Virus record (IMG/VR): IMGVR_UViG_3300044695_003767
DNA length: 64,000 bases
Reading direction: 5' to 3' (one strand)
DNA from: a virus
Position numbers and translations under genes: made by a program. The notes below the pieces were generated by a model. It did not search any database. It was given only the letters and a program-made list of their open reading frames with translations, and was not told where the DNA came from. This document shows positions 5,438 to 44,794 of this stretch, one piece after another (the first letter of the stretch is position 1; the number at the start of each line of letters is the position of its first letter).

Positions 5438-5443
5438 TACTCA

Positions 5444-5477
5444 TTGACCTCTTTTGTAAAGTATTGTAAACTAAATA
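5444..5477 (+). promoter_or_regulatory. psbD promoter containing an HLR1 (RpaB) box and a late promoter
   Basis: TTGACC (5444), 17 bp, TAAACT (5467-5472); the minus strand of 5453-5470 reads TTTACAAT-AC-TTTACAAA; CTAAATA at 5471-5477. Confidence 0.75.
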
Positions 5478-5498
5478 TGAGAAATGACAATGGAGACT

Positions 5499-24903: not shown

Positions 24904-24904
24904 T

Positions 24905-26206
24905 ATGTCTAAAATACTCATAGGTCGTGGTGATACTGATTTAAATTATCCAATCTGTCGTCCAAGTTTAGACTTGGATTTCACACAAGAAGAGTTAGAT
25001 CCTCGCATTACATTCACCAGAGGAAGTATTGGAACTCGTGTCAATCGTAATCGTTTGATTGAAACTGTTGATGCAAATCAACCAAGATTTGATTATGACC
25101 CTGTGACTGGTGAGTGTAAGGGTTTATTGATTGAGGAGAGTAGGCAGAACTTATTTACAAATAGTAACGACTTTACAGTTTGGACTAAACAAACAACAGG
25201 AACTGGTGTAGTTGGCATTACAACAAATTATACTACTTCTCCTGATGGAACAACAAATGCAACCAGATATTTTATTCAAAATGGTGGAGGAACATTTTAT
25301 TCCATTTTTAGAGGAGTATCTCCAATATCTGCAAATACTTCATATTCATATTCAATTTTTGTAAAAGCAAGCACAACTGTTCCAGTTCCAGCATCTTCAT
25401 TTACTTTGGTTGTCTTTGATGGATCTATTGCAAGTTTTGTTACTTATAATTTAAATACGGGAACTATTCAATCAACATTTGCGAATACCAATCTAACAAT
25501 CGGTTCTGGTTCCACCATTACAAATTATGGAAATGGTTGGTACAGATGTGTATTTGTGTTTTCGCATTCTGTTGGTGGAAGTGGATTTCAATTTAAAGCA
25601 GATATAGGTTCAACAAGACACAATCAAGAATTGTTTATTTACGGAGCACAATTAGAAGCAGGAGCATTTCCAACATCTTATATACCCACAACAGCATCCA
25701 CAGTCACTCGTTCTGCTGATACTGCTTCTATGACTGGAACTAACTTCTCAAGTTGGTATAATCAAAATGAAGGAACGATATATGTTAATAATAAGATACC
25801 TTATACACCATCATCAGTTTCTTTATATTTTTTAATTTTTGGAATTAATGCTGGAAATAGACATAGTATTGAACAAACAACAGCAAATGGATTGACTTAT
25901 ATTACTCAAAATAGTGGTGGAATACAATACTGGAGCACTTCTGGTTCTGGAGTATTACCCGCAAATACAAACAGAAAAACCACATATGCATATAGTTCTT
26001 CTAATATTAAAACTTTATTATCGGGAACTTCCAATCAAACTTATACATTTAGTGTGAAATCAACTACCGATGTTTATAAATCTATGACGACTATGTATAT
26101 TGGAAGATTTAGTGATAGTTTATATTTTTTAAACGGAACCATAAGTCGTCTCACTTATTACCCAAGAGCACTCAAACCAAATCAACTTCAACTCTTAACA
26201 CAGTAA
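24905..26206 (+). CDS. head-spike/LamG-like virion protein, paralog 2
   Basis: Same motif framework; GAQLEAGAFPTSYIPT. Confidence 0.7.
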   Translation: MSKILIGRGDTDLNYPICRPSLDLDFTQEELDPRITFTRGSIGTRVNRNRLIETVDANQPRFDYDPVTGECKGLLIEESRQNLFTNSNDFTVWTKQTTGTGVVGITTNYTTSPDGTTNATRYFIQNGGGTFYSIFRGVSPISANTSYSYSIFVKASTTVPVPASSFTLVVFDGSIASFVTYNLNTGTIQSTFANTNLTIGSGSTITNYGNGWYRCVFVFSHSVGGSGFQFKADIGSTRHNQELFIYGAQLEAGAFPTSYIPTTASTVTRSADTASMTGTNFSSWYNQNEGTIYVNNKIPYTPSSVSLYFLIFGINAGNRHSIEQTTANGLTYITQNSGGIQYWSTSGSGVLPANTNRKTTYAYSSSNIKTLLSGTSNQTYTFSVKSTTDVYKSMTTMYIGRFSDSLYFLNGTISRLTYYPRALKPNQLQLLTQ

Positions 26207-26207
26207 G

Positions 26208-27419
26208 ATGTCTATACTTTCTCTTCAAAAACAATCACAAAACACAGACTTTCCAAATGTTCGCCCATCTTTGGATTTGAGATTTGCTCTTGCGAAAAAG
26301 TTAGACCCACGCATTACATTCACTCGTGGAAGCACTGGAACTTATTTTGGTCCTGATGGTCTTATGAGAACTGCTGATGTGAATGAACCAAGATTCGACC
26401 ACGATCCAATTTCAGGGCAAAGTTTGGGATTGTTGATTGAGGAGAGTAGAATTAATCAATTAGTAAGAGGTGATATTGAAGGAACTGTTGGAGCACAACC
26501 AACTGGGATGCAACTTTTTGGTCCAAGTAATGGGCAAACTGCTGTTGTATCAACTGATGTATTTTTAGGACCAAACGGACAATCTTGTAAACATACAAGA
26601 GGTACTTGGTCAGATAGTAATATTGGATACTTTGGTAGTGGAACAGTGACTGCTGGTTCCACTTATGTTTTTTCTGCTTATGTTTATATTCCTTCTTCGC
26701 AAGCAAAAAACTTTGAAGGGAAAACTGTAAGATTTTCTATGGAAAGTCCAAATACAGGTTCAACTCTTGCTTCTGCTGATGTAACAATTGTAGACAGATG
26801 GCAGAGAGTATGGGGAACTTGTGTTCCTTCTACGACTTCTGCTACTTGGGTTTTAAGAACAACTGCAAATACTGGTAGTTTCTTTTATACTGATTGCTGG
26901 CAATTAGAACTTGGTAGTCTTCCAACATCCTATATGCCTGCTTCTGGAGGTTCTCAATTCACAAGAAGTGCTGATACTGCTTCTATGACTGGAACTAATT
27001 TCTCAAGTTGGTATAATCAAAGTGAAGGAACTATTTCTGTAGATTGTGCAAGTCCTACACTATCTATTATTCCTGTTGCAATTTCTGATGGAACTGTAAG
27101 TAACAGATTTCAATTAGAGGTAGGTACAAATGCAAGAGGTGTTCGTGTTGTATTTAATGGAATACTTCAAACATCATATATTTCTTATACTTATAACACA
27201 AAACAAAAAATGATAATGAGTTATAGTTCAAGTTCTGTTAATTTTGTAAATGCTGGTGTTGTAGCAACTCTTATTAGACCACAAGGAATACCTAATGTAA
27301 ATATTTTGAGAATAGGAGCAAATGTTGCTAATGCTGGTCAAAATAATTTACCAATAAGTCGTCTCACATACTATCCAATCCAACTCACCAATCAACAACT
27401 TATAAATTTAACCAACTAA
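26208..27419 (+). CDS. head-spike/LamG-like virion protein, paralog 3
   Basis: Same motif framework; WQLELGSLPTSYMP. Confidence 0.7.
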   Translation: MSILSLQKQSQNTDFPNVRPSLDLRFALAKKLDPRITFTRGSTGTYFGPDGLMRTADVNEPRFDHDPISGQSLGLLIEESRINQLVRGDIEGTVGAQPTGMQLFGPSNGQTAVVSTDVFLGPNGQSCKHTRGTWSDSNIGYFGSGTVTAGSTYVFSAYVYIPSSQAKNFEGKTVRFSMESPNTGSTLASADVTIVDRWQRVWGTCVPSTTSATWVLRTTANTGSFFYTDCWQLELGSLPTSYMPASGGSQFTRSADTASMTGTNFSSWYNQSEGTISVDCASPTLSIIPVAISDGTVSNRFQLEVGTNARGVRVVFNGILQTSYISYTYNTKQKMIMSYSSSSVNFVNAGVVATLIRPQGIPNVNILRIGANVANAGQNNLPISRLTYYPIQLTNQQLINLTN

Positions 27420-29612: not shown

Positions 29613-32600
29613 ATGGCAAGAAAGGCAATACTGGAAACTGGATATACATTCACTCCTTCCACAAATACTATCGTCATTCCTCGTGTCATACCGAGAGAAC
29701 GATTAATTCTGATTACCAATGTAACGACGAACACAGTAATTTATAATTTCTCTGACTCAAATCTAAAAGCAACTTCTTATACTGTTTCAACTTCTGGTGG
29801 TACGAATACAACCACAGTCGTATTGAATTATAGTACTGCTTCGATGAGTAGTACTGATAAACTTCAAATCATTGTAGATGAATATGATGAGAAGTTTACA
29901 CCTTCAGAAGCATATGTAGACCCTGTAAATAAATTTAGAGTTTCAACTCCACAAGCACTGATTGATACTGACTTTGAATATGGTAGTCAGATTACAAAGT
30001 GGGAAAATCTTGCGATGATTAATAATCGTCCTTTTGCTTATCCTTCTTCAGTTGGCATAACTGGAATCGGCACAATTACATTACCTACTAACTCAAGAAC
30101 AGTCACAGTTGTAGTTTCTGGTGGAGCTCCACCTGGAATTGGAACAGCAATTACGGTTCAAGATACTTATCTGAATATTGCGAATGGAAACTTTATTGTA
30201 GAATCTGTTGGTGCTGGTAATACAAACTTTACTTATACTGCAAGAGCAACAAATACAACAACAGTTACAAATATTTTTGACTCCAATAAGACTGGTATAT
30301 TTTCTGGAACCACATATACAAATGCTCAGATTGGTGGAACACCAACATTCTCTTGGACTTCTGGAACTGCAATTCCTGTAACAACTACAGTTCCTCATGG
30401 TCTTGCCATTGGTAATGAGGTTTCGGTTGTCGGAACATCGCAGGTAAATGCAAATGGTTCTTTTGTGGTTGCTACAATTACCAGTTCAACTGCATTTACT
30501 TATTATTCAACTACTGCACCAGCAGCAAACCCAACTGGTGGAAGAATCTTCGTAAGACCTCAAGGACAATTTTTGCACAGACCATTCGATGGTGGAATTA
30601 TTTTCACATCAAACTCAAATGGAAACTTTGAGCAAGCAATTCGCCAAACCAGAAGATATTTTCGTTATCAATCTGGTAAAGGTATTCAAGTCAGTTCTGG
30701 TACTATTTTAAAACCAAGTTTGCAGATTGATAGTTTAACTTCAACTGGATTGAGTATTGGAAGTACAATTAGAGTACAAACAAAAGAACAGCATAATATT
30801 CAGGCAGCAACACCAGGAACTCAAATTACACTTTCTGGTGTAAATGAATCTGGATATAATGGAACTTATACTGTAACTTCCGTAACTGGATATAATAGTT
30901 TTAATGTTACATCAACTTCTGGAATTGGTTCAACGGTTGCGTCTGGAACTTATAACTGTTCTGTTTCAAGTTGGTATGGATGTTCCAATCGTCTTGGAAG
31001 TTTTGATGCTCAAAATGGAATATTCTTTGAGTTTGATGGGCAAACACTTTCTGCGGTTCGTAGAAGTTCTACCTATCAACTTGCAGGAAAAGTTACTGCA
31101 ACAAATGGTTCAAATACTATTACTCAAACAAATGCAACATTCCCAACAGTATTTGCAAAACAACTAAACATTGGAGATTTTATTGTTCTTCGTGGTCAGT
31201 CATATCGTGTTGTTGATATTGCAAGTGATACTTCTATGACGATTTCTCCTTCGTATAGAGGAGCAACTGCCGATTATGTAATCATCTCAAAAACACAAGA
31301 TACAAAATATCCACAATCATCTTGGAACATTGACAAGTGTGATGGTACGGGTCCTTCTGGATATAATATTGATCTTACCAAGATGCAGATGTTCTATATG
31401 GACTACTCTTGGTATGGTGCTGGATTCATTCGTTGGGGATTCAGAGGTCCAGATGGCAATGTAATTTACTGCCATAAAATACCAAATAATAATGTCAATA
31501 CAGAAGCATATATGCGTTCTGGAAACTTACCAGCACGATATGAATCTGAAAGTCTTCCACCAACAACCAAAATTACTAGAAGTGTGGGAGCATCCGATAC
31601 ATTTGTTGGTATTGCAAGCACTGCAGGATTCCCAACTGCTGGTACAATCGTTGTTCGTAATGCAAATACTTATGAGTATATGAATTATGCTGGTATTGGA
31701 ACAACTGCATTTACTGGGGTCACAAGAGCAAGGTCTGGCAGTACTTCTCTTGCACTTACGGTTGCCTCTGGATCTAATGTGGCAACTGCAACCACCACAA
31801 ACCTACAAGTAGGTCAGAGAGTGATTGGTGGATTCCCAGAAGGAACCTACGTCAGTGCAATTGGTGTTGGAAATATTACATTAAGTCAGGCAGCAACCAC
31901 AGCAAACCCAACAGTAATTATTCCCCCAATGGGAGCATCATCGGGTCAATCATTTACTTTCTCTGCTACGGACCCAGTTGCTGTTGAACTTGCATTCCCA
32001 ACTTATGGACCTTCTATTTCTCACTGGGGAACTAGTGTGATTATGGATGGTCGTTATGATGATGATAAATCTTTGGTCTTTACTTACGGTCAAAGAACTG
32101 CTACTACTATTTCTCCTGGTGCAACACGGGCACTACTTGCAATTCGTGTTGCACCATCAGTAGACAATGGAGTTGCCGCAGCATTTGGACAAAGAGAATT
32201 AATCAATAGAATGCAATTAGTTCTTCGAAATCTGGGAATCTCAATTCGTGGTAGTACAACATCAAACATTCTTGTACAAGCACTCTTAAATGCGACTCCA
32301 TCAACCACAAATACTTGGACGAATGCTATTGGTAATGCTACGGGACAACAAAATTCCAGTTTGGCACAAATTGTCGATTATGCTGGTGGTTCAACTACAG
32401 TAACAGGTGGTGAAGTTACTGCAGGTCTATTCTCTTCTGGTACTAGCACACTTGATTTAAGTTCTGTAAGAGACTTGGGTAATTGTATTCTTGGTGGAGG
32501 TGGTGCTACTTCAAATAGTGGAATATATCCAGACGGTCCAGATACATTAACAATTACTGTAACTAATATTGCTGCCACTGGTGATGTCAATGTAACTGCA

Positions 32601-32630
32601 AGAATTTCTTGGACGGAGGCACAAGCATAA
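29613..32630 (+). CDS. large virion structural protein (1005 aa)
   Basis: LLITNVT..IYNF, LIDTDFEYG, RQTRRYFRYQSGKG, DYSWYGAG, SHWGTSVIMDG, C-terminal WTEAQA. Confidence 0.8.
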   Translation: MARKAILETGYTFTPSTNTIVIPRVIPRERLILITNVTTNTVIYNFSDSNLKATSYTVSTSGGTNTTTVVLNYSTASMSSTDKLQIIVDEYDEKFTPSEAYVDPVNKFRVSTPQALIDTDFEYGSQITKWENLAMINNRPFAYPSSVGITGIGTITLPTNSRTVTVVVSGGAPPGIGTAITVQDTYLNIANGNFIVESVGAGNTNFTYTARATNTTTVTNIFDSNKTGIFSGTTYTNAQIGGTPTFSWTSGTAIPVTTTVPHGLAIGNEVSVVGTSQVNANGSFVVATITSSTAFTYYSTTAPAANPTGGRIFVRPQGQFLHRPFDGGIIFTSNSNGNFEQAIRQTRRYFRYQSGKGIQVSSGTILKPSLQIDSLTSTGLSIGSTIRVQTKEQHNIQAATPGTQITLSGVNESGYNGTYTVTSVTGYNSFNVTSTSGIGSTVASGTYNCSVSSWYGCSNRLGSFDAQNGIFFEFDGQTLSAVRRSSTYQLAGKVTATNGSNTITQTNATFPTVFAKQLNIGDFIVLRGQSYRVVDIASDTSMTISPSYRGATADYVIISKTQDTKYPQSSWNIDKCDGTGPSGYNIDLTKMQMFYMDYSWYGAGFIRWGFRGPDGNVIYCHKIPNNNVNTEAYMRSGNLPARYESESLPPTTKITRSVGASDTFVGIASTAGFPTAGTIVVRNANTYEYMNYAGIGTTAFTGVTRARSGSTSLALTVASGSNVATATTTNLQVGQRVIGGFPEGTYVSAIGVGNITLSQAATTANPTVIIPPMGASSGQSFTFSATDPVAVELAFPTYGPSISHWGTSVIMDGRYDDDKSLVFTYGQRTATTISPGATRALLAIRVAPSVDNGVAAAFGQRELINRMQLVLRNLGISIRGSTTSNILVQALLNATPSTTNTWTNAIGNATGQQNSSLAQIVDYAGGSTTVTGGEVTAGLFSSGTSTLDLSSVRDLGNCILGGGGATSNSGIYPDGPDTLTITVTNIAATGDVNVTARISWTEAQA

Positions 32631-32633
32631 GAA

Positions 32634-34250
32634 ATGGCTAAACTTAAATCTGGTACAAGGATTTACGGAACAGCGACAATTGATACTAGTGTTGTAGTAG
32701 GTTCTGCCGTAACATTAAGTTCTTCCGGAATTTTGATTGGTTCTGCAACATCAACGGGAACCGCATCACAACCATTACAAGTTACTGGTGGTGCTTATGT
32801 TTCTGGTAATCTTGGTATAGGAATCACAAATCCATCACAATCTTTACACGTTCAAGGTAATGCTAGAGTTACTGGTGCTGTTTATGATTCAACAAACTCA
32901 CCAGGAACATCAGGTCAGGTCCTCCAATCAACAGTAACGGGAACCCAATGGACTACTGCAGCAGCAGGTGGTGGTGGATCTGGTAAGTTTGATACATCAA
33001 TTGATAATGTTGTTTACGTTCAACCAACAGGAACATTGGATATTGTTGGAGTTGGTACAACAACCACACAAATCACAACACTTCCTGCTGGTTCGAATAA
33101 GTATTTGGTCCATTCAATTCACGTTACTAATATATCCAACGGTGATGCTGAAATTACTTCTGGGTTTGTAATGAATGCAAGAAAAGTTCCCGCAACAATT
33201 GTTTCTGGTGGTGGAATTGGAGTTGCAGCTGCTGGTATTCATACCATTAGAGTTAGTGTGGCAAGCAGTATTAGAATTGGTATGGCTGTAACTGGACAAG
33301 GAAATATTGGAGAGACAATAGGTATTGGTTCAACTGCAGGATTCCAGTATAACACATATGTAACAAGTGTAGATGGAAACCTAATTACATTAAGTAAACC
33401 AATTGCAGGTGCTGCTGTATCTGGTACTGCTTGGTTTTCACCAGTTTCTAAAGTTTCATCTCGTCTTCCAGTTCCTGTTGGTTCTGCAGTTGAACTTTTA
33501 AAACAACCGATGGTTTTGGATGCATTGGATAGTATTGTGCTACAATCTACTGGTGCTGGCACTGGTGTCGGTACAACTTCAACTGCTGTATTCACACAAA
33601 CAGCAAACTCAAATATTGTATCTTGCACTGTTGGTTCTGCGATTACAAACTTCATTTATGCAGGTCAATTAGTTCAAGGTATAGGAACCAATACTGGCAT
33701 TCAAACAAATACATTTATTGGTGTTGGTTATACTCCAGGATCAAACTTAGTTCCACTTACAAGACCAGCAACATCTACATTAGCATCACAAACACTTTCA
33801 TTCACTGATGTTATAACACCACAAGATGGTGCATTACAAGCAACAATTGTCTATCAATCTTCTACAGACACTTCATATTTAAATGGAACTGGTACTGTTG
33901 TTGGTATTGTAACATTAGCATCACAGGCAGTTTCAGGAGTTACTTCAACAACTCCATTCCCTTATTATGGAACTGGAAACCTTTATCCTTCTACTGTTCA
34001 GTCTATTCGAGTTTCAAATATATCTGATGGTTCTATCTATCCTGGTGGAGATTATCCTGTCTCTGTAGGTATTGGTAATAGTGATACAGTATTCTCCTGG
34101 TTGGCATATAATATGGTGATTCCAAGAAACTCTTCAATTGAACTTTGTGAGGCACCAAAGAGATTGGGGATTGGACAGTCAATCTTTGCATTATCAAACA
34201 CAGTTGGAGTTATCGAAATACAGGTCGCAGGAAAACAAAAAACAACATAA
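32634..34250 (+). CDS. short fibre / adaptor protein
   Basis: MAKLKSGTRIYG, shared fibre modules, two HSIHVTN/QSIRVSN...VELLKQP/IELCEAPK domains. Confidence 0.7.
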   Translation: MAKLKSGTRIYGTATIDTSVVVGSAVTLSSSGILIGSATSTGTASQPLQVTGGAYVSGNLGIGITNPSQSLHVQGNARVTGAVYDSTNSPGTSGQVLQSTVTGTQWTTAAAGGGGSGKFDTSIDNVVYVQPTGTLDIVGVGTTTTQITTLPAGSNKYLVHSIHVTNISNGDAEITSGFVMNARKVPATIVSGGGIGVAAAGIHTIRVSVASSIRIGMAVTGQGNIGETIGIGSTAGFQYNTYVTSVDGNLITLSKPIAGAAVSGTAWFSPVSKVSSRLPVPVGSAVELLKQPMVLDALDSIVLQSTGAGTGVGTTSTAVFTQTANSNIVSCTVGSAITNFIYAGQLVQGIGTNTGIQTNTFIGVGYTPGSNLVPLTRPATSTLASQTLSFTDVITPQDGALQATIVYQSSTDTSYLNGTGTVVGIVTLASQAVSGVTSTTPFPYYGTGNLYPSTVQSIRVSNISDGSIYPGGDYPVSVGIGNSDTVFSWLAYNMVIPRNSSIELCEAPKRLGIGQSIFALSNTVGVIEIQVAGKQKTT

Positions 34251-34253: not shown

Positions 34254-34907
34254 ATGAGTATTCTTATATCATTACCTTGTTATGGTGGATTAGTGAATGA
34301 AAAAACCACAACATCACTGTTTAATCTTGGTAAACTTTTAGTTCGCAATAATATAGATCACGGCATAATGACTGTCGCAAATGAGTCTTTGATTACTCAC
34401 GGACGGTCAAGAATTGCTAATTTCTTTATGAATAATACTGAGTTTGAGTATCTGTTCTGTCTGGATGCTGATGTTGCCTTTTCGCCAGAAGATATGTTGA
34501 AGTTATATTCGTATCAAAAACCAATCGTGTCTGCATCATATCCTATGAAGACACTACCAATACGACACTGTTATGAACTTTATAATCCTGTAAAGTTATG
34601 TGGAAATCTTGTGAAGATTGGTGGAATTGGTATGGGATTTGTATTAATTCATAGAAGTGTCTTTGAGAAACTAAATAATCATTATAGTGAATTAAAGTAT
34701 TTTCCGGGATTGAATAATTCAAACTATCCAATTACTGAAAAAGAATATCATAATTCATATCACTACTTTGCAGAAATGAATAAGGAAGGAAAATACTTGG
34801 GAGAAGATATGAGTTTCTTTCATCGTGTCAGTGATATTGGTTATGATGTTTGGTTGGATACAAGTATAGAATTACAGCACATCGGTTCTCACGTATTCGG
34901 TAAGTAA
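34254..34907 (+). CDS. GT-A fold glycosyltransferase
   Basis: ESLITHGRS, LFCLDADV (DxD), GMGFVLIHRSVF, GEDMSFF, HIG. Confidence 0.75.
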   Translation: MSILISLPCYGGLVNEKTTTSLFNLGKLLVRNNIDHGIMTVANESLITHGRSRIANFFMNNTEFEYLFCLDADVAFSPEDMLKLYSYQKPIVSASYPMKTLPIRHCYELYNPVKLCGNLVKIGGIGMGFVLIHRSVFEKLNNHYSELKYFPGLNNSNYPITEKEYHNSYHYFAEMNKEGKYLGEDMSFFHRVSDIGYDVWLDTSIELQHIGSHVFGK

Positions 34908-34908: not shown

Positions 34909-36783
34909 ATGGCAATTGGAGTATTTGGTCTACAAGTTGCTTACAGATTAAAGAGACTTGAGGTGATGAGTGTTGATGATACTCACGGATGGTTTGGTGG
35001 TGGTTTTCCAGCACTATTAACAGTAGACCGTATAGATTTTTCTAATGATACTGGAACTACAAACATTAGAGGTTCATTAAGTGTAGGAAGAAGTGCTGCG
35101 GGAGCAACAGGAAACTCTAACTATGGTTGGTTTGGTGGTGGTAATTCTCCAGGAGTATTATCATCAGTAGATAGAGTAGATTTTTCCAATGATTCTCCAG
35201 CAGTATCAGTAAGAGGTCCATTAAGTTTAGCAAGAGATGGAGTATCAGCAACAGGAAACTCTAACTATGGTTGGTTTGGTGGTGGATTTGGTGTAAGTAG
35301 TAGATCAATTGTAGACCGTATAGATTTCTCTAATGATTCTTCCACGGCATCACCAAGAGGTCCATTAAGTTCATCAAGATATAGTGGAGCGTCAACAGGA
35401 AACTCTAACTATGGTTGGATTTCTGGTGGGCAAAATCCAACACTATTTTCAACAGTAGACCGTATAGATTTTGCAAATGATTCTTCAACGGCATCACCAA
35501 GAAGTCCATTGAGTTCAGCAAGAAGTTCTTTATCAGCAACAGGAAACTCTAATTATGGTTGGTTTGGCGGTGGTACTACTCCAGGACCAGTAGTAGCAAC
35601 AGTAGACCGTATAGATTTCTCAAATGATTCTGTATCAGTATCAGTAAGGGGTTCATTATTTACGGCAAGATATGGTTTAGCAGCAACAGGAAACTCTAAC
35701 TATGGTTGGTTCGGTGGTGGTTCTATTAGTGGACCAGGAGTATCAACAGTAGACCGTATAGATTTCTCTAATGATTCAGTATCAGCATCACCAAGAGGAC
35801 CATTAAGTTTAGCAAGACAAGGTTTAGCATCAACATCGGGACAAGCAAAAGGACCAGCAATCAAACTGCAAAAAGCAGGGAATTATGGTTGGTTTGGTGG
35901 TGGTGGACCATCACTTGCGGGGGGTGCAACTGCAACAGTAGATCGTATAGATTTTTCTAATGATTTGGCAACAGCATCACCAAGAGGTTCATTAAGTAAA
36001 ACAAAATCTCAAATATCAGCAACAGGAAATTCTAACTATGGTTGGTTTGGTAGTGGTATTACTACACCACCAACACCAGCAACAGTATCAACAGTAGACC
36101 GTATAGATTTTTCTAATGATTTGGCAACAGCATCAGTTAGAGGTATATTAAGTTCAACAAGATATGCTTTAGCAGCAACAGGAAACTCTAACTATGGTTG
36201 GTTTGGTGGTGGTGGTCTTAATCCGCCAATAACATCAATAGTGGACCGTATCAATTTTTCAAATGATTTAGAAACAGCATCACCTAGAGGTTCATTAACT
36301 CAAACAAGATTTAGATTAGCAGCAACAGGAAATTCTAACTATGGTTGGTTTGGTGGTGGTAGAGGTGGTTCTCCAATATCAACAGTAGCAACAGTAGACC
36401 GTATAGATTTTTCCAATGATTCTGCAACAGCATCACCAAGAGGTCCATTAAGTGCTGCAAGATATTCTTTAGCAGCAACAGGAAACTCTAACTATGGTTG
36501 GTTTGGTGGTGGTGCTTTTCCAGCAAAAGCAACAGTGGACCGTATAGATTTCTCTAATGATTCCACAACGACATCAGTTAGAGGTCCATTAAGTTCGGCA
36601 AGATATCATTTATCGGCAACAGGAAACTCTAATTATGGTTGGTTTGGTGCAGGTCTTTCACCAGCACAAGTATCAACAGCAGATCGTATAAACTTTTCAA
36701 ATGATTCTGTGTCAGCATCAATTAGAGGATTACTTGGGACAAAAACCTTCTTCTATGGAGCAACCTCCAACAGCACCAAATAA
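34909..36783 (+). CDS. kelch-like double beta-propeller protein A (12 repeats)
   Basis: 12 x R..LAATGNSNYGWFGGG-[variable]-TVDRIDFSND; linker after repeat 6. Confidence 0.8.
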   Translation: MAIGVFGLQVAYRLKRLEVMSVDDTHGWFGGGFPALLTVDRIDFSNDTGTTNIRGSLSVGRSAAGATGNSNYGWFGGGNSPGVLSSVDRVDFSNDSPAVSVRGPLSLARDGVSATGNSNYGWFGGGFGVSSRSIVDRIDFSNDSSTASPRGPLSSSRYSGASTGNSNYGWISGGQNPTLFSTVDRIDFANDSSTASPRSPLSSARSSLSATGNSNYGWFGGGTTPGPVVATVDRIDFSNDSVSVSVRGSLFTARYGLAATGNSNYGWFGGGSISGPGVSTVDRIDFSNDSVSASPRGPLSLARQGLASTSGQAKGPAIKLQKAGNYGWFGGGGPSLAGGATATVDRIDFSNDLATASPRGSLSKTKSQISATGNSNYGWFGSGITTPPTPATVSTVDRIDFSNDLATASVRGILSSTRYALAATGNSNYGWFGGGGLNPPITSIVDRINFSNDLETASPRGSLTQTRFRLAATGNSNYGWFGGGRGGSPISTVATVDRIDFSNDSATASPRGPLSAARYSLAATGNSNYGWFGGGAFPAKATVDRIDFSNDSTTTSVRGPLSSARYHLSATGNSNYGWFGAGLSPAQVSTADRINFSNDSVSASIRGLLGTKTFFYGATSNSTK

Positions 36784-36807
36784 ATAACTCAAACTACATC
36801 ATTTCTT

Positions 36808-37419
36808 ATGAAGCAGAATATTATTATTGTTGATAATTTCTATGAGAATCCATATGAAGTTCGTCAATACGCATTAAATCTGGAGTATCCACAACCACAA
36901 GACGGATATACCTATCCAGGTAGAAACTCAAAAGGAACTTTTTATAATCAAGAGATTCACGATAAGTTTGAGAATTTAATTGGAAGACATTTAGTTCCTG
37001 CTGATTGTGGTAATCATGGAGATTTTAGATTATCATTAGAAGCAGATACATTCCAACAAGACATTCATATTGACCCAATCTGGGAATGGGGTTGTGTTCT
37101 TTACATGAATCTACCGCATCAGTGTATTGATGAGGCAGGAACATCATTCTGGAAACATAAGAAACTGGGGTGGGAAAGAGTTCCAGAACAACAAGAAGCA
37201 GGTTGGTTTGGTTATACTTCTTATGATGAAATCCGTGATGGTATTGTGTATGGTGATGGACTTGACCGTTCTAAGTGGGAGAGATACTGTTTGGCAAATA
37301 TGAAGTATAATAGAGCAGTCATCTTTGACCCAAAACTCTGGCACTCACACGGAGCAAACTTTGGAGATAGTTTAGAAAATGGTAGATTAGTTCAATTGTT
37401 CTTCTTTAATAATGCATAA
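36808..37419 (+). CDS. 2OG-Fe(II) oxygenase-like protein (DUF6445-like)
   Basis: IIVDNFYENP, YPGR, HID...GTSFW...YNRAVIF...WHS...RLVQLFF. Confidence 0.75.
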   Translation: MKQNIIIVDNFYENPYEVRQYALNLEYPQPQDGYTYPGRNSKGTFYNQEIHDKFENLIGRHLVPADCGNHGDFRLSLEADTFQQDIHIDPIWEWGCVLYMNLPHQCIDEAGTSFWKHKKLGWERVPEQQEAGWFGYTSYDEIRDGIVYGDGLDRSKWERYCLANMKYNRAVIFDPKLWHSHGANFGDSLENGRLVQLFFFNNA

Positions 37420-38242
37420 GACTTATTTTTTTGAGAGTGGATTGCCACGTTCTGGTTCTACATTACTTTCTGCAATTCTAAATCAAAATCCAGATATTCA
37501 CTGCGGTGCAATTTCTCCTGTGCTGGAGATTATGTATTATACAGAGCAATACTTTGAAGGGTCGGAGCAGGCACTTGCATATCCAAAACCAGAGCAACAT
37601 CATAAGATTATTTCAAGTGTGATTGATAATTATTATGATGATATTGATAAACCAATCGTAGTGGATAAATGCCGTGCCTGGACTAATAACACCGATAGAA
37701 TACAAGAATACATTACAAAGACTCCAAAGATTCTGTGCCCTGTGAGAGATGTTGTAGAGATTCTTGCATCGTTTATTCAAATGATTCATCGCAATTCCAA
37801 TCAAGTATCTTTTGTAGATAAGGCACTCACAGAACAAGGATATGAACTGACTGATGATAATCGGTGCGACCATCTAATGTCTCCCGTAGGTATTGTAGAC
37901 CAGTCCTTATATGCCTTTGGAGAGGGGTTCAGAAAGGGTTGTGAGAGGTATATGCATATGATTGAGTATAATGACTTGGTAAATTGTCCAGAAGAAACGA
38001 TGCACAAGGTTTATAAGTTCTTAGAGATTCCCGAATACAAACACGACTTTGGTAATGTCAGTCATAAATACCGTGAGAGAGATAATGATATTTACGGACT
38101 AAGTGATATGCACGAAGTTCGTAAGCAAGTAAAAAGAACTTCTAAAAGACCTGAAGAAGTTTTAAGTGATTATGTATTGAATAAGTATTCTGGTATGGAA
38201 TTTTGGAGAAAGGCAAAACCACCAATTAGTTTGTTCATATAA
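37412..38242 (+). CDS. PAPS-dependent sulfotransferase
   Basis: SGLPRSGSTLL 5'-PSB loop; PVRD...S 3'-PB motif; YNDLV..P. Confidence 0.88.
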   Translation: MHKTYFFESGLPRSGSTLLSAILNQNPDIHCGAISPVLEIMYYTEQYFEGSEQALAYPKPEQHHKIISSVIDNYYDDIDKPIVVDKCRAWTNNTDRIQEYITKTPKILCPVRDVVEILASFIQMIHRNSNQVSFVDKALTEQGYELTDDNRCDHLMSPVGIVDQSLYAFGEGFRKGCERYMHMIEYNDLVNCPEETMHKVYKFLEIPEYKHDFGNVSHKYRERDNDIYGLSDMHEVRKQVKRTSKRPEEVLSDYVLNKYSGMEFWRKAKPPISLFI

Positions 38243-38246
38243 GTAA

Positions 38247-40130
38247 ATGACAATCAATAATAACAATATATTTGGAGCATTTACACTTGGAGAAGTTCGT
38301 AGTGGACGACTGACTGGTGAATGGTTAAATAAAGAATCCGTTGCGAATTATGGTTGGTTTGGTGGTGGTTATAATAGTATTGCAACAGTAGATCGTATAG
38401 ATTTCTCCAATGATTCTTCCACGGCATCACCAAGAGGTTCATTAAGTTCGGGAAGACATGGTTTAGCAGCAACAGGAAACTCTAACTACGGTTGGTTTGG
38501 TGGTGGTGTTATTCCTGCAAGATCACTTTCTACAGTAGATCGTATAGACTTTTCTAATGATTCTCCAACTGCATCAATTAGAGGTTCATTAAGTTCAGCA
38601 AGATATTACTTAGCAGCAACAGGAAACTCTAACTATGGTTGGTTTGGTGGTGGTTTCCCTGGTCCAAGATCAATAGTAGACCGTATAGATTTCTCTAATG
38701 ATGCAGCAACAGCATCACCTAGAGGATCATTAAGTTTAGCAAGATATAATTTAGCAGCAACAGGAAACTCCAATTATGGTTGGTTTGGTGGTGGAAATCC
38801 AGGGTTTACATCAACAGTAGACCGTATAGATCTTTCTAATGATTCTGGAACAGCATCACCAAGAGGTCCATTAAGTTCGGCAAGATATAGTTTAGCAGCA
38901 ACAGGAAACTCTAACTATGGTTGGTTCGGTGGTGGTGGACCTAGTTCTACACCAGGACCATTATCAAGAGTAGATCGTATTGATTTCTCTAATGATTCTT
39001 CAACAGCATCAGTAAGAGGTCCATTAACTTTAGAAAGAACTCGATTGGCGGCAACAGGAAACTCTAATTATGGTTGGTTTGGTGGTGGTTATAATACAGT
39101 TACTAGGAGTACAGTAGACCGTATAGATTTTTCTAATGATTCTGTATCAGCATCATTAAGGGGTTCATTAAATCCTGCAGGAAAAACAACACACACAGCA
39201 ACCTCAGGAGTTCTCAATATTCGCAGACAAAAAGCAGGGAATTATGGTTGGTTTGGTGGTGGTTTTCCATCAGCAGACAGAGTAGACCGTATAGATTTTT
39301 CTAATGATTCCGCAACAGCATCAGTTAGAGGTCCATTAAGTTCAGCAAGATATAGATTAGCAGCAACAGGAAACTCTAACTACGGTTGGTTTGGTGGTGG
39401 TAGAGCAGGATCTCCAATAGCAAATACATCAAGAGTAGACCGTATTAATTTCGCAAATGATTCTCCATCAGCATCAGTAAGAGGACCATTAAGTTTAGCA
39501 AGATCTAGTATGGGTGCAACAGGAAATTCTAACTATGGTTGGTTCGGTGGTGGTGGTACTCCATCAGTAGTAGCAACGGTACATCGCATAGATTTCTCAA
39601 ATGATTCTTCAACCGCATCAACAAAAGGTCCATTAAGTTCCGGAAGATATACTCCAGGAGCAACAGGAAACTCTAACTACGGTTGGTTTGGTGGTGGATT
39701 TGTTTCATCTCCGACACCATCTTATGTAACAACAGTAGACCGTATAGATTTCTCTAATGATTCTTCAACCGCATCACCAAGAGGTCCATTAAGTTCAGCA
39801 AGATATGGTTTAGCAGCAACAGGAAACTCTAACTATGGTTGGTTTGGTGGTGGTTATGCTCCTACAACAGTTAGATCAACAGTAGACCGTATAGATTTCT
39901 CCAATGATTCCTCAACAACATCAGTAAGAGGTCCATTAAGTTCAGCAAGATATAGATTAGCAGCAACAGGAAACTCTAACTACGGTTGGTTTGGTGGTGG
40001 TGATCCTGGACCATTATCAACAGTAGACCGTATCAATTTTGCAAATGATTCTGCAACAGCATCACCAAGAGGTTCATTATTTACAACAAAATATTCTTCA
40101 GCAGCAACCTCCAACACCCCAATAGGATAA
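38247..40130 (+). CDS. kelch-like double beta-propeller protein B (12 repeats)
   Basis: Same repeat as protein A, arranged 2x6 with an IRRQKAGN linker. Confidence 0.8.
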   Translation: MTINNNNIFGAFTLGEVRSGRLTGEWLNKESVANYGWFGGGYNSIATVDRIDFSNDSSTASPRGSLSSGRHGLAATGNSNYGWFGGGVIPARSLSTVDRIDFSNDSPTASIRGSLSSARYYLAATGNSNYGWFGGGFPGPRSIVDRIDFSNDAATASPRGSLSLARYNLAATGNSNYGWFGGGNPGFTSTVDRIDLSNDSGTASPRGPLSSARYSLAATGNSNYGWFGGGGPSSTPGPLSRVDRIDFSNDSSTASVRGPLTLERTRLAATGNSNYGWFGGGYNTVTRSTVDRIDFSNDSVSASLRGSLNPAGKTTHTATSGVLNIRRQKAGNYGWFGGGFPSADRVDRIDFSNDSATASVRGPLSSARYRLAATGNSNYGWFGGGRAGSPIANTSRVDRINFANDSPSASVRGPLSLARSSMGATGNSNYGWFGGGGTPSVVATVHRIDFSNDSSTASTKGPLSSGRYTPGATGNSNYGWFGGGFVSSPTPSYVTTVDRIDFSNDSSTASPRGPLSSARYGLAATGNSNYGWFGGGYAPTTVRSTVDRIDFSNDSSTTSVRGPLSSARYRLAATGNSNYGWFGGGDPGPLSTVDRINFANDSATASPRGSLFTTKYSSAATSNTPIG

Positions 40131-40133
40131 AAT

Positions 40134-41867
40134 ATGAAATCAGGAGCAAGTGAAAGTTCTTATTTTTTTCTTGAAGAATATTATAAGTTTCCAGAAAACA
40201 TTATAGTTTCTCATTTACCACAAGAACTTCAACAATCAAATAAACCAATCAAAGTATTATGGTCGCAACATTCTTACGACCAACCAGTTTATCTTAACTT
40301 TGATTTTTCAATTTGTGATTTAATTGTCTCTCCATCCAACTGGTGTAGAGAACAATTCATTAAGTATCATCATATCCCAGAGAATAAAATTGTCACAATT
40401 CCAACAGGAGTATCAAAGCAATTTACATACTCATCAAGAAAATCAAAGACATTTATCTATACTTCCATACCATATAAAGGTCTTGAGGTATTAGCACAAA
40501 TCATTCCTCATATTCCAGAGGCAACATTCAAGATTTTCTCTGCGATGAATCTTTATGATATTCAAGAAGACCCATACACAGAACTTTATGAATATCTTAA
40601 ATCACTTCCAAATGTCGTCTACTCACCAGCAGTAGACCAAGCAGAACTCATAGAGCACTTACAGGATGCTGCATTCTTTATTCATCCAAATATTTGGGAG
40701 GAAACATTCTGTGTTTCATTAGCAGAAGCAATGTCTTGTGGATGCTTTCCAATTCTTACAGATATTGGAGCACTTCCAGAAGTATCAAATGAGATTGCAA
40801 ATATTGTTCCTATGGAAGGTATAAGAACCACCAAAGGATATGAAGTCACAGACAACTTCCTAAATAACTTTATAGATGCCTGTAAATCTGCAGTATATTT
40901 CTTTGATAATGACAGGCAGTACTACGACCAAATTTCACAATCTGTTTCACATTATGCTACTGAAACTTATGATTGGAAAAAAATTGCAAACGTTTGGAAA
41001 CAAACATTAGAACCATTTAGTAAACAAACTATGACTGAAAATTGTAACCAACTGCAAATTATTTCCCCAGAGGAAGCAGTAAGTAACGAAGAGTATTTAC
41101 AACAGGCATTTCAAGAAGTGCTTCGTTGGGAAGAAGCAGACAAAGAACTGGCACAAGGAAGAACTAATTTTCAGATTGAGAAGTTCTTTCTGTTAGAGCA
41201 ATATACAGTTCCTGCAGCATTTCAGGCAGCAATTAAGAATCGTCGTATTCTTGCCGAAGGTTATATGCAGAAACTGATTGAGATGAAAGAAAAGGTTCGT
41301 GAGTTTGAGTATCGTTGGAAAGGTAAGAATACTGATGAACCCGTAGAGTGGCATACTTCTGGACCGAATGGTGGTTCCACAAAACTCTATTGGTATGATT
41401 TGGATTCAATCTCAACTCAAAACTATTTGAAGTCTTGTGAGTTGGAAATTCGTGACCGCATTCAGCAGATGAATTTCTTTGATAAGATTATTAATCGTCT
41501 GATTGAACTAAATGGTGGTAAGACAGTTACTAGAGAACAGTTTGAAGCAGAAGATCACGTTTATTGGGAACGTCGTTTTGCAGAGCAATCTCTGGATGAA
41601 ATGGTAAGTTCCAAGACTGGTATTAGTATTGGTAATCTCCACTCAATGAGAAGAGGAACTGCACCTACTCTTGTAAGTGATGATACAAATAGAATCAAGA
41701 ATGGTTATGGTTCACTTGCCGATGCAATTAATGACCCTGATAGATTCTTGAATACTCTGCAAGAGAAAGTTCTTCGTGGTATTGAAGAAGTGACGAATAC
41801 TGATTTAGGTTTGCTTGCACCTGGAACAGAACAACATCAACAACTTTTAGAATCCAGAAACTCATAA
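40134..41867 (+). CDS. GT4 (GT-B) glycosyltransferase fused to a helical/coiled-coil domain
   Basis: YTSIPYKGL, EETFCVSLAEAMSCG (EX7E); ~280-aa charged helical C-terminal domain. Confidence 0.8.
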   Translation: MKSGASESSYFFLEEYYKFPENIIVSHLPQELQQSNKPIKVLWSQHSYDQPVYLNFDFSICDLIVSPSNWCREQFIKYHHIPENKIVTIPTGVSKQFTYSSRKSKTFIYTSIPYKGLEVLAQIIPHIPEATFKIFSAMNLYDIQEDPYTELYEYLKSLPNVVYSPAVDQAELIEHLQDAAFFIHPNIWEETFCVSLAEAMSCGCFPILTDIGALPEVSNEIANIVPMEGIRTTKGYEVTDNFLNNFIDACKSAVYFFDNDRQYYDQISQSVSHYATETYDWKKIANVWKQTLEPFSKQTMTENCNQLQIISPEEAVSNEEYLQQAFQEVLRWEEADKELAQGRTNFQIEKFFLLEQYTVPAAFQAAIKNRRILAEGYMQKLIEMKEKVREFEYRWKGKNTDEPVEWHTSGPNGGSTKLYWYDLDSISTQNYLKSCELEIRDRIQQMNFFDKIINRLIELNGGKTVTREQFEAEDHVYWERRFAEQSLDEMVSSKTGISIGNLHSMRRGTAPTLVSDDTNRIKNGYGSLADAINDPDRFLNTLQEKVLRGIEEVTNTDLGLLAPGTEQHQQLLESRNS

Positions 41868-41878
41868 GGAGAAAGTAG

Positions 41879-44119
41879 ATGCCAGCAGGAGACGTATTTG
41901 GTCTTGATGGATTTTTTCTAAACGTATCAAATCCCATTACGGTTTCTGCTGTAGATATTAACTCTACTGCTGCTGGTGCCGGTATTACTGTAACTGCTGG
42001 TTCTTTTAGTTCTGGAACAGTCACTCTTACACTTTCAACTGCTGCTGGTCTTTCTACAACACCTTTTTATACTGGTGCAAAGATAGCAGTTTCTGGTCTC
42101 GCAATCGCATCAGGAGTAGCACATACTGGATATAATGGAAATTTTGTAGTCACAGGATTTGCAGGAACCACAACAGTTTCTTATGCGACTACTGGTTATG
42201 TTGGTCCTGTGACTGCTGGTATTACCACAACTGGTTTGGTAATGTTAGTGACTGATACTGCAGTTACGAATACCACTTGGAGTAGTTCTCAAACTCACGG
42301 TTGGTTCGGTGGTGGACAATCTCCATCAACAGGATTTTCAACAGTAGACCGCATAGATTTCTCCAATGATACTGGAACTGCAAATATTAGAGGTTCATTA
42401 AGTTCAGCAAGAAATGAGTTAGCAGCAACAGGAAACTCTAACTATGGTTGGTTTGGTGGTGGATATGTTCCAGTAGCATATTCAACAGTAGACCGTATAG
42501 ATTTCTCTAATGATTCTTCAACGGCATCACCTAGAGGTCCATTGAGTCGTACTAGATATCGTTTAGCAGCAACAAGTAACAGTTCTTATGGTTGGTTTGG
42601 TGGTGGTGAATTCTCACCATTTGTATTATCAACAGTAGACCGTATAGATTTCTCTAATGATTCTGGAACAGCATCAGTCAGAGGTCCATTAAGTTTTGCT
42701 GCGAATATATTAGCAGCAACAGGAAACTCTAACTATGGTTGGTTTGGTGGTGGTAATACTCCAGGAGTATTATCATCAGTAGGTCGTATAGATTATGCTA
42801 ATGATGCAGCAACAGCATCACCTAGAGGTCCATTAAGTTCAGCAAGAAGAGATTTAGCAGCAACAAGTAACAGTTCTTATGGTTGGTTTGGTGGTGGTTT
42901 TCCTGGTCCAGGAGTATTATCAAGAGTAGACCGTATAGATTTTTCTAATGATTCTTCAACGGCATCAGTAAGAGGTTCATTAAGTTCAGCAAGAAATCTT
43001 TTAGCAGCAACAGGAAACTCTAATTATGGTTGGTTTGGTGGTGGTACTGGTGGTTCTGGTGCAATATCAAGAGTAGACCGCATAGATTTTTCTAATGATT
43101 CCACAACAACATCACCAAGAGGTCCATTAAGTTCATCAAGATATCGTTTAGCAGCAACATCAGGGCAGGCAAGGTCTTCAAGTATTCGTCTACAAAAAGC
43201 AGGGAATTATGGTTGGTTTGGTGGTGGAAGTTCTGGGGGAGCACCATTTACTGGATACTCAACAGTAGATCGTATAGATTTCTCAAATGATTCCTCAACA
43301 GCATCACCAAGAGGTTCATTGATTGCAACAAAATATATAAAAGCAGCAACAGGAAACTCTAACTATGGTTGGTTTGGTGGACAATTCATCACTCCTACAC
43401 CAGGAAGAGCATCAACAGTAGACCGTATAAATTTCTCCAATGATTCTGCAACACCACTAATTAGAGGTTCATTGAGTTCAGCAAAAAATAATGTAGCAGC
43501 AACAGGAAATTATAATTATGGGTGGTTTGGTGGTGGATATCCGGGATCTGTTGGAACAGCAGCAGTAGACCGTATAAATTTTTCTAATGATGAATTAACA
43601 GCATCATCAAGAGGACCATTGAGTTCAGCAAAATATAATTCTGCAGCAACAGGAAATTATAATTATGGGTGGTTTTCTGGTGGAACTATTCAACCATCAC
43701 CTGCACTTCCACCGGTTAATTTATCATCAACAGACCGTATAGATTTCTCTAATGATTCTGCAACAGCATCACCAAGAGGTCTATTAAGTTTAGCAAGAGG
43801 AGGTTTAGCAGCAACAGGAAACTCTAACTATGGTTGGTTTGGTGGTGGTAGTGGACCAATATCAACAGTAGACCGTATAGATTTTTCAAATGATTCTGCA
43901 ACAGCAACTGTTAGAGGTCCATTAAATGGAGTAAGATCTCTTCTAGCAGCAACAGGAAACTCTAACTATGGATGGTTTGGTGGTGGTATTTCTCCTGGAG
44001 GAACATCAACAGTGCATCGATTAGATTTCTCTAACGATTCTGTATCAGCATCACCAAGGGGTCTATTAAGTCAGGCAAGATCATTATTAGCAGCAACAGC
44101 CAATACACCAATAGGATAA
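41879..44119 (+). CDS. kelch-like double beta-propeller protein C (12 repeats plus N-terminal beta domain)
   Basis: ~140-aa N-terminal domain, then 2x6 repeats with an IRLQKAGN linker. Confidence 0.8.
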   Translation: MPAGDVFGLDGFFLNVSNPITVSAVDINSTAAGAGITVTAGSFSSGTVTLTLSTAAGLSTTPFYTGAKIAVSGLAIASGVAHTGYNGNFVVTGFAGTTTVSYATTGYVGPVTAGITTTGLVMLVTDTAVTNTTWSSSQTHGWFGGGQSPSTGFSTVDRIDFSNDTGTANIRGSLSSARNELAATGNSNYGWFGGGYVPVAYSTVDRIDFSNDSSTASPRGPLSRTRYRLAATSNSSYGWFGGGEFSPFVLSTVDRIDFSNDSGTASVRGPLSFAANILAATGNSNYGWFGGGNTPGVLSSVGRIDYANDAATASPRGPLSSARRDLAATSNSSYGWFGGGFPGPGVLSRVDRIDFSNDSSTASVRGSLSSARNLLAATGNSNYGWFGGGTGGSGAISRVDRIDFSNDSTTTSPRGPLSSSRYRLAATSGQARSSSIRLQKAGNYGWFGGGSSGGAPFTGYSTVDRIDFSNDSSTASPRGSLIATKYIKAATGNSNYGWFGGQFITPTPGRASTVDRINFSNDSATPLIRGSLSSAKNNVAATGNYNYGWFGGGYPGSVGTAAVDRINFSNDELTASSRGPLSSAKYNSAATGNYNYGWFSGGTIQPSPALPPVNLSSTDRIDFSNDSATASPRGLLSLARGGLAATGNSNYGWFGGGSGPISTVDRIDFSNDSATATVRGPLNGVRSLLAATGNSNYGWFGGGISPGGTSTVHRLDFSNDSVSASPRGLLSQARSLLAATANTPIG

Positions 44120-44143
44120 ATACCTCAAACTACATTATAAGCA

Positions 44144-44794
44144 ATGAATTTATTATCCAAAGTTTTGATTGCACCAAAAGTCATCAATCAGGAAGGTATT
44201 GATGCACTGGTAAATCATATGAAAACTTCAAAAACAGAAGACCTTTCAGTATTTGATCCAGACAAATCCAATCAGACACGAGGAACTGAATGGATTACAG
44301 ATAAGAAAACAAGAGATACTCAAATTGCTCCAATTGAACCTGTATTTCCACAGGTTAACGAATTGATGCATCATATTGTAAAGCAAGTTATCAATCCTTT
44401 TTATCAGTTTGAAGTTGATAGTTCAGAAGTTCCACAACTACTCTGCTATGGTGTAGGAGGACACTACCAACCTCATATTGATGGTGAAGGTATATGGACT
44501 GCACCAGATCAGACACAACTTTGGAGAAAGACAGTAGATCGTGATTTGTCTATGGTCTTATATTTGAATGATGGATTTGAAGGTGGAGATTTTGTATTTC
44601 CAGACCTTCATATTCATATTCGTCCTGAACCTGGACTTCTTGTATGTTTTCCTTCTAATAGGTATTATCGTCACGGTGTTGAACCAGTCACCAAAGGAAA
44701 CCGATATTCAATGGTAACTTGGATGACAGTCAAAGGATTTGAGAGTATGGAGACACAATGCAATAATCTCAAATCTAAATATGGGGTGTGTTGA
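44144..44794 (+). CDS. 2OG-Fe(II) oxygenase, prolyl-4-hydroxylase-like
   Basis: HYQPHID, RDLSMVLYLN..FEGG, FPS...HGVEPVTKGNRYS. Confidence 0.88.
   Translation: MNLLSKVLIAPKVINQEGIDALVNHMKTSKTEDLSVFDPDKSNQTRGTEWITDKKTRDTQIAPIEPVFPQVNELMHHIVKQVINPFYQFEVDSSEVPQLLCYGVGGHYQPHIDGEGIWTAPDQTQLWRKTVDRDLSMVLYLNDGFEGGDFVFPDLHIHIRPEPGLLVCFPSNRYYRHGVEPVTKGNRYSMVTWMTVKGFESMETQCNNLKSKYGVC

Follow-up and report, generated by a model that had tools for sequence, protein, structure and literature searches.

How can a phage hold a protein scaffold almost constant, down to the synonymous sites of its DNA, while the loops displayed by that scaffold differ at nearly every position from those of its closest relatives? 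The question is raised by positions 34909 to 44119 of a 64,000-nt stretch of viral DNA (IMG/VR record IMGVR_UViG_3300044695_003767; hereafter the window, with all features placed below between 34254 and 44794 on its plus strand), where three genes that we call A, B and C each encode twelve variants of one repeat. The answer that we favor, and consider fairly likely, is that A, B and C are paralogous genes of the late or structural module of a cyanophage resembling Synechococcus phage S-SKS1, and that recombination redistributes their loops while selection keeps the loops different. Their genomic context suggests that the proteins are probably host-recognition proteins.

Gene A (34909-36783; 624 amino acids; PHROG 19111, E = 4e-137) has a short N-terminal peptide followed by propeller 1 (repeats A01-A06, 34981-35880) and propeller 2 (A07-A12, 35881-36780). 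Gene B (38247-40130; 627 amino acids) is divided into B01-B06 (38346-39239, the linker SGVLNIRRQKAG included) and B07-B12 (39240-40127), and in gene C (41879-44119; 746 amino acids) an N-terminal domain of about 138 amino acids (41879-42292) precedes C01-C06 (42293-43204) and C07-C12 (43205-44116). The repeats, exactly 12 in each gene and 36 in total, are about 48 amino acids apiece and take the form NYGWFGGG, loop, VDRIDFSNDSxTASxRGxLSxARxxLAATGNS; they measure 46-55 amino acids, or 58-61 where a linker follows repeat 6, which gives the genes their 6+6 layout. Across all 36, hardly any change is seen in the A-R motif or in YGWFGGG, a hydrophobic strand that ends in GG, in keeping with Kelch repeats of 44-56 amino acids.

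The constancy of this framework extends to the DNA. A 45-nt framework copy at 36169-36213 (LAATGNSNYGWFGGG) recurs unchanged, synonymous sites included, at 38610-38654 and 42710-42754, and the 45-nt string identical at these three sites (TTAGCAGCAACAGGAAACTCTAACTATGGTTGGTTTGGTGGTGGT) is found at three more (36469, 39810 and 43805). Where the same amino acid is encoded, codon identity is 0.80 within a framework column versus 0.50 between columns: Arg is CGT at column 11 and AGA at columns 24 and 31, Gly is GGA at column 38 and GGT elsewhere, and whether Ser is written AGT, TCA or TCT depends on the column. Because codon choice is column-specific, codon bias is ruled out as the source of the framework identity, which is instead a matter of shared descent or homogenization. 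The loops from GGG to V-D-R, by comparison, span 6-15 amino acids (4-13 once the usual S/T-T ending is left off), and the most variable framework columns are 32-33, just past the conserved Arg, where the proportion of nonsynonymous differences (pN) is 0.63-0.70. In crude per-column counts, which cover the framework since the loops are not alignable, pN exceeds the proportion of synonymous differences (pS) at columns 19, 30, 32 and 33; columns 19 and 23, on the other face from the hypervariable loop, vary moderately and with restricted alphabets. These measurements agree with the initial annotation of this DNA, made from the letters alone, which had counted 36 blades in three genes, seen the 45-nt framework shared by all three, put the post-GGG loop at about 4-13 amino acids and remarked on the variability of the residues after the Arg. 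The loops that it listed as recurring between genes are also there: NSPGVLSS (A02) and NTPGVLSS (C04) are 1 nt apart, FPGP is present in B03 and C05, and RGGSPI/RAGSPI, in A10 and B08, have 15 of 18 nt in common.

By predicted structure, each of the three genes encodes two tandem six-bladed Kelch-type beta-propellers, the fold to which the initial annotation had assigned them. The AlphaFold2 model of gene B propeller 1 (residues 26-337), built on an alignment of 104 propeller units, has a predicted local distance difference test score (pLDDT) of 88, a predicted template-modeling (TM) score of 0.89 and six sets of four strands, 24 in all; it replaced a poor model of the whole protein (pLDDT 42) that had been made with a 12-sequence alignment. 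In Foldseek searches this model matches Kelch domains (the designed SAKe proteins, KLHL12 and Keap1) at TM scores of 0.8-0.9 with E values from 1e-19 down to 3e-21. Its matches among viral models include a fragment from S-SKS1, a Kelch protein from a Burkholderia phage and, from phiKZ-like jumbo phages, virion structural proteins. At the level of sequence, Pfam reports Kelch_4 in C at 23.2 bits against a cut-off of 21.6, Kelch_3 in A at 18.5 against 22 and no Kelch match in B, and a PDB sequence search matched no chain. Pfam and PHROG scans found no tail-fiber or collar domain in A or B, and the N-terminal domain of gene C gave only weak atlas leads (scores below 0.9) to phage tail or nozzle-type proteins. 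The eukaryotic ciliary family FAM183 reaches whole-protein E values down to 1e-13 on A, B and C, yet no single stretch passes, and we regard the match as spurious; the same name is the precomputed label on most database homologues, where it looks like a repeat-driven false annotation.

Each repeat runs through strand YGWFGGG, the hypervariable loop, strand TVDRID, loop FSNDSxTA, strand xRGx, loop LSxAR, strand xxLAATG and turn NSN. Because successive loops of a four-stranded antiparallel blade alternate faces, the post-GGG loop (the B-C loop) and the Arg loop (the D-A loop), together with the variable residues that follow the Arg, would be expected to lie on the same face of the propeller; this blade topology agrees with the shared face that the initial annotation had described for Kelch propellers. 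It is the face built by the B-C and D-A loops that binds the ligands of Keap1 and the KLHL proteins.

To place this variation we turn to 46 related IMG/VR loci (related loci are numbered with the prefix L where they must be told apart). The same locus, with three genes of 12 blades and the same interleaved enzymes, recurs in no fewer than 10 independent IMG/VR contigs. Twelve blades are found in all complete A, B and C genes, and the variable repeat number that marks unequal crossing-over is not seen; in more distant contigs there are proteins of 6, 18, 24 or 36 blades, always multiples of six. The sole exception to this fixed blade number is a doubtful collapsed locus on two short contigs from different samples (L037:36-1013 and L038:739-1716), where one six-blade gene, its N-terminus that of gene A and its C-terminal end resembling that of C, sits directly between a gene of the type found at 34254 in the window and a 2-oxoglutarate (2OG) oxygenase gene. 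Recombination between A and C blades may have deleted about 8 kb here; the alternative is a misassembly by repeat collapse. More than 1000 clusters at 90% identity came back from a protein search with the propellers; nearly all are singletons, and none has a name.

In close relatives the interleaved enzyme genes are 92-98% identical in amino acids to those of the window (pS 0.2-0.35, pN 0.02-0.03), whereas orthologous blades are only about 77% identical in nucleotides, with a framework pN of 0.16, and orthologous loops are unrelated, differing in length and sequence at almost all 36 positions. Some loop types recur, at differing positions in differing phages: xPGP[LV][AS]T, FPAVAT, xxPTPAVV[AS]T and R[AG]GSP[IV]. 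When cassettes that occupy the same slot are compared between phages, their identity is bimodal, either at least 0.99 or 0.6-0.85 with one value between, which argues for cassette replacement rather than gradual divergence.

The footprints of such replacement can be seen at individual loci. A propeller cassette at 38247-39263 is 99.6% identical between the window and L048 (from JGI sample 3300027597), with an exact run of 784 nt at 38328-39111; its right junction (39248-39263) falls inside the NYGWFGGG framework of B07, and its left edge lies near the start of gene B, outside the repeats. Elsewhere these two genomes are 90-95% identical in the sulfotransferase, DUF6445 and 34254 genes and only 74-75% identical in gene A and in propeller 2 of gene B. 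Between L001 and L006 the blades from B07 to C06 are 91-99% identical and the others 65-85%, and here the edges of the similar segment are the two inter-propeller linkers.

Shorter tracts connect blades at different positions. In the window, the end of A01 and the loop of A02 (35103-35170) match the end of C03 and the loop of C04 (42715-42782) at 67 of 68 nt, and the two sequences diverge directly past the end of the tract. The longest exact internal repeat of the window, 75 nt at 39327-39401 (B07) with its second copy at 39927-40001 (B11), consists of framework and does not extend across a loop; the frameworks of B07 and B11 are 95% identical, and in a Sawyer-type permutation within the window this pair is the sole globally significant fragment (p=0.005). 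Exact non-allelic tracts that do carry loops occur within single genomes of the relatives: 125 nt between A07 and C07 of L003, 111 nt between a B and a C blade of L004, 91 nt between two B blades of L008 and 81 nt between B07 and C02 of L001, whose C02 loop is that of its own B07 and differs from the C02 loop of its close relative L006. With those of the window, exact tracts of 75-125 nt within and between genes are thus found in five genomes (the window, L001, L003, L004 and L008). Loops identical at non-allelic positions make up 6 of 5160 within-genome pairs and 0 of 41245 between-genome non-orthologous pairs (p=2e-6), where one L008 triple supplies three of the six so that the pairs are not fully independent; for loops at least 95% identical at non-allelic positions, the within-genome odds ratio is 16 (p=5e-7). 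Near-copies are also visible in gene A of L048 (L048:6678-8537), in which A06 and A07 both carry DRIDFSNDSVTASPRGTLSSGRKELAAT across the linker and the loops of A08 and A10 read YNPSSPFFHS and YNPNSPFFQS; A04 and B02 of the same locus both carry SNDSPTASIRGSLSSARYYLAATGNS.

The scaffold itself bears the marks of concerted evolution. In the clade of the window, framework pS is alike, at about 0.29, for paralogs (0.30), orthologs (0.28) and non-orthologs. The more distant L026 also has the 3 x 12 layout, which is older than its split from the window's clade, but with a flank pS of about 0.57 its blade pS is 0.50 relative to the window and 0.545 among its own blades; because the layout is the same and pS is 0.50-0.55, the blades of the window's clade must have been homogenized after the layout arose. 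Paralogs in this clade are closer, at synonymous sites as well, than the age of their duplication allows (pS 0.29 versus 0.50-0.55). The blade-level nucleotide phylogeny that the initial annotation had proposed as a check gives, for the 36 blades of the window, a star-like tree mixed by gene, with 17 changes of gene label against 17.4 when labels are shuffled; blades 1, 6 and 12 alone group by position. This is what the initial annotation had predicted, and the strict clustering by gene and position that it had named as a refutation is excluded.

These comparisons support recombination inside the scaffold, mainly as exchange of cassettes and in addition as short conversion tracts. The blade shuffling put forward in the initial annotation is supported in part: what dominates among close relatives is the allelic swap of whole six-blade propellers rather than the free movement of single blades. 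Its likening of the locus to an antibody library is not supported in a programmed or somatic sense: the exchange seen is evolutionary and at the level of populations, blade number is rigid at 12, and blades 1, 6 and 12 keep their positional identity.

From the predicted fold, the pattern of variation and the recombination footprints, which these observations show, a mechanism can be sketched. Each blade keeps an almost invariant scaffold, conserved down to its synonymous sites, and by its topology exposes on one face the B-C loop and the residues around the D-A Arg, and homologous recombination starting and ending in conserved scaffold DNA would maintain the diversity of these loops and redistribute it across the phage population. 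Recombination would operate at two scales. Whole propeller cassettes would be replaced allelically between co-circulating phages, with junctions at gene ends, in the inter-propeller linker or in framework, and, inside a single genome, conversion tracts of about 70-125 nt would carry a copy of a loop and the framework beside it from one blade to another, in the same gene or across genes. These exchanges would also homogenize the scaffold, and selection, probably via changing host surface ligands, would keep the loops different. The proteins would sit on the virion, bind host receptors and be modified by the co-conserved hydroxylase, glycosyltransferase and sulfotransferase.

Several points weigh against this account. 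The recombination between frameworks that the initial annotation had proposed can be seen directly in the cassette swaps and non-allelic tracts described above, but within the window itself just two tracts (A02/C04 and B07/B11) speak for non-allelic exchange, and the Sawyer-type sum-of-squares statistic, which is inflated by the clustering of slowly evolving sites, is not relied on. Framework similarity is no higher within genomes than between them, and homogenization could go back to one old event, combined with exchange between phages, instead of to intragenomic conversion that still continues. Nor can new loops arise by shuffling, which leaves the huge number of distinct loops unexplained. 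The assignment of the variable residues to one face comes from strand order and not from measured solvent exposure, and PHROG 19111 and all database homologues are annotated as hypothetical; a virion or host-range role is suggested by context. Finally, the relatives are all metagenome contigs, as the window perhaps is too, and assemblers that switch strains at frameworks could mimic allelic swaps.

That last point can be enlarged into an explanation of its own, in which the mosaics are assembly artefacts produced by strain switching or repeat collapse at identical frameworks of 45-75 nt. Short-read assemblies are known to break at repeat proteins (PMC9238414), the relatives come without exception from IMG/VR or JGI contigs, the one-propeller locus of L037/L038 could be a repeat collapse, and the S-SKS1 homologues are fragmented and placed at the end of a linear record. 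We nevertheless think it quite improbable, as separate samples yielded identical 3 x 12 contigs (L005/L012/L019, L008/L009 and L010/L011/L016/L017), strain switching cannot put an identical loop-bearing tract at two sites of one contig, the left edge of the tract shared with L048 is near the start of gene B and not in a repeat, and the hypervariability of the loops is independent of any junction. Were the contigs sound, the blades might still have evolved with no ongoing recombination, through an ancestral burst of duplication or a re-amplification on the stem of the window's clade followed by vertical descent, with purifying selection on the scaffold and diversifying or relaxed selection on the loops. 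The ortholog framework pS of 0.28, which is near that of the flanks (0.2-0.35) and slightly under that of paralogs (0.30), would fit, as would the stability of blade number and of the special blades 1, 6 and 12, and L026 is not homogenized, with a pS of 0.545 among its own blades and no exact repeat of at least 50 nt. Such descent is hard to reconcile with flanks whose synonymous divergence (dS) is only about 0.3 and orthologous loops that are nevertheless unalignable and of differing length at nearly all 36 positions, with a framework pN that is about the same for orthologs (0.16) as for paralogs (0.18), with cassette identities that are bimodal and not graded, with a 99.6%-identical cassette between flanks at 90-95%, or with exact loop-bearing non-allelic tracts of 81-125 nt confined to single genomes, and we judge it improbable.

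The source and purpose of the diversity can be read differently as well. Variation localized to defined loops of a constant scaffold is what a targeted mutator such as a diversity-generating retroelement (DGR) might leave behind, but the variation here consists mostly of length changes and whole-loop replacement, not of substitutions confined to set positions of a template. The variable regions number 36, no template copy is evident, and no reverse-transcriptase family was found among the 40 open reading frames of the window, a subset of the total, that were scanned against Pfam or PHROGs. On these grounds a DGR is rejected, and we give a targeted mutator of this or a similar kind almost no credence; the absence of a reverse transcriptase that the initial annotation had proposed is supported for the window frames scanned. 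A less easily dismissed view, although we still think it unlikely, is that something other than receptor binding accounts for the hypervariability, the proteins being either virion decoration or whisker proteins that attach to environmental glycans or intracellular Kelch adaptors directed against variable host defense or target proteins. Protein binding is a generic function of Kelch domains, those of Keap1 and the KLHL proteins among them, A and B lack any tail-fiber or collar domain detectable in our scans, and the set of hydroxylase, glycosyltransferase and sulfotransferase resembles proposed systems for decorating surface proteins (PMC2938197). Against this, the genes close a long run of tail-fiber-like and structural genes on one strand, and phiKZ-like jumbo phages have Kelch-like propellers annotated as virion structural proteins. 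Hypervariability of this degree among near-identical phages is, moreover, typical of adsorption proteins.

It is useful to set the A, B and C proteins, read as recombining host-recognition proteins, beside better known systems. With the Kelch propellers of Keap1, KLHL12, KLHL3 and the designed SAKe proteins they have in common six blades of about 48 amino acids and four strands, a strand ending in GG and an Arg before the innermost strand, and the loops that vary are the B-C and D-A loops, as in the ligand-binding face of Keap1 and the KLHL proteins. Unlike cellular Kelch proteins they are phage-encoded, form two tandem propellers, lack BTB and BACK domains and have no sequence match in the PDB, and their blades are far more alike, which explains why designed symmetric SAKe proteins are the top Foldseek matches. 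A likeness in design principle is offered by the gp38 adhesins, whose hypervariable segments are said, in work by Tetart et al. of 1998, to be separated by conserved glycine-rich motifs. In T-even phages, conserved Gly-rich core motifs of gp38 present hypervariable loops and are thought to serve as recombination sites through which phages exchange specificity (Trojet et al. 2011, PMC3157838), and the junction of the swap between the window and L048 lies in the NYGWFGGG framework. However, the sequences and folds are unrelated, with no PHROG or Pfam link between them and a Kelch fold here; hypervariable segments number 4 in gp38, a single small protein, compared with 36 blades in three genes here; receptor binding is demonstrated for gp38 and is suggested by context for A, B and C; and non-allelic exchange between internal repeats is a feature of A, B and C that is not known for gp38. 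The WD40 repeats of the fungal HET-D, HET-E and NWD proteins, which show high internal conservation and concerted evolution within and between loci (Paoletti, Saupe and Clave 2007, PMC1805685), resemble ours in having near-identical propeller repeat DNA, variable residues on an interaction face and repeats of different genes intermixed in trees. They differ in fold (WD40 rather than Kelch), in a repeat number that varies widely and is fixed here, and in that four point positions vary in HET-D and HET-E whereas whole loops vary in length in A, B and C; repeat-induced point mutation (RIP), the fungal hypermutation of repeats, is irrelevant to the phage genes, and here exchange is also between genomes, by way of co-infecting phages.

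The genes around the propellers are of interest for what they may do to them. Upstream of A is a conserved neighbor (34254-34907; PHROG 1574) with a weak glycosyltransferase-like match; between A and B are a DUF6445 protein (36808-37419) and a sulfotransferase (37412-38242), both Pfam assignments and both 92-98% identical in amino acids in relatives; between B and C is a group-1 glycosyltransferase (GT1; 40134-41867; Pfam); and directly 3' of C is a 2OG-Fe(II) oxygenase (44144-44794; Pfam and PHROG). This set of five accompanies the propellers in distant relatives as well, whose enzymes share just 45-64% identity (L023, L024, L029, L033, L035, L036, L040 and L041), and likewise in S-SKS1 (L047). 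The loops, rich in Pro, Ser, Thr and Gly, are by composition plausible substrates for hydroxylation, glycosylation and sulfation. Genes for a 2OG-Fe(II) dioxygenase and a sulfotransferase beside that of a repetitive phage or bacterial surface protein have been described, and hydroxylation followed by sulfation was proposed (Iyer et al., 2010, PMC2938197); the substrates in those operons are collagen-like or tail-collar proteins, whereas here the presumed substrate is a Kelch propeller with Pro/Ser/Thr-rich loops and a glycosyltransferase is added. The short spacers after A (36783-36807) and C (44119-44143), which immediately precede the DUF6445 and 2OG oxygenase genes, have in common the motif ATAAATA(A/C)CTCAAACTACAT, which resembles a T4-type late promoter (TATAAATA).

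More widely, the window belongs to an uncultured phage with psbA and psbD (3812-6560), the T4-like replication genes gp32, PhoH and ThyX, and a siphovirus-type tail tube protein and a tape-measure-like protein. Upstream of the propeller genes, a same-strand block of about 27 kb (7728 to 34250) holds tail-fiber-like and virion structural genes, among them three tandem paralogous tail proteins of PHROG 5939 (23482-27419; 473, 433 and 403 amino acids) with the common N-terminal motif LDPRITFTRGS.GT. The structural genes just upstream of the locus (29613-32630 and 32634-34250) are 58-80% identical in amino acids among relatives versus 92-98% for the enzymes and, as they too are far more divergent than the enzymes, the variable region reaches beyond the propellers. 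The closest named relative is S-SKS1 (Llyrvirus), with about 79% nucleotide identity over parts of the window. A nucleotide search of the propeller locus against named phages gave no match, and a protein search of named viruses matched only S-SKS1 and two single-cell marine viruses. In S-SKS1 (NC_020851.1, 193779-208007), the only cultured relative, the homologues, located at the extreme end of the linear record, are several short open reading frames annotated as hypothetical proteins, with a sulfotransferase and a 2OG-Fe(II) oxygenase as neighbors, and their fragmentation suggests assembly or frameshift problems in the repeats.

It is tempting to speculate further that the constancy of the scaffold DNA is itself selected, so that 36 blades with 72 variable loops, in six cassettes, would form a recombination-ready combinatorial library of adhesins that a cyanophage population reshuffles all the time, within genomes and between co-infecting phages, to track variation in host surfaces, its Pro/Ser/Thr loops hydroxylated, glycosylated and sulfated by the co-inherited enzymes. 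We put this forward tentatively and consider it doubtful as it stands; if true, it would be a retroelement-free diversification system particular to this widespread phage group. A highly symmetric Kelch scaffold with freely replaceable loops, whose best structural matches are the designed SAKe proteins, may also interest protein engineers. Freshwater and marine metagenomes commonly contain cyanophages of this group, and their propeller family has no described function. If the propellers are adsorption proteins, then a very large repertoire of binding surfaces would be kept by homologous recombination alone on a constant scaffold, and the propellers would be the chief variable factor deciding which of these phages infect which picocyanobacteria.

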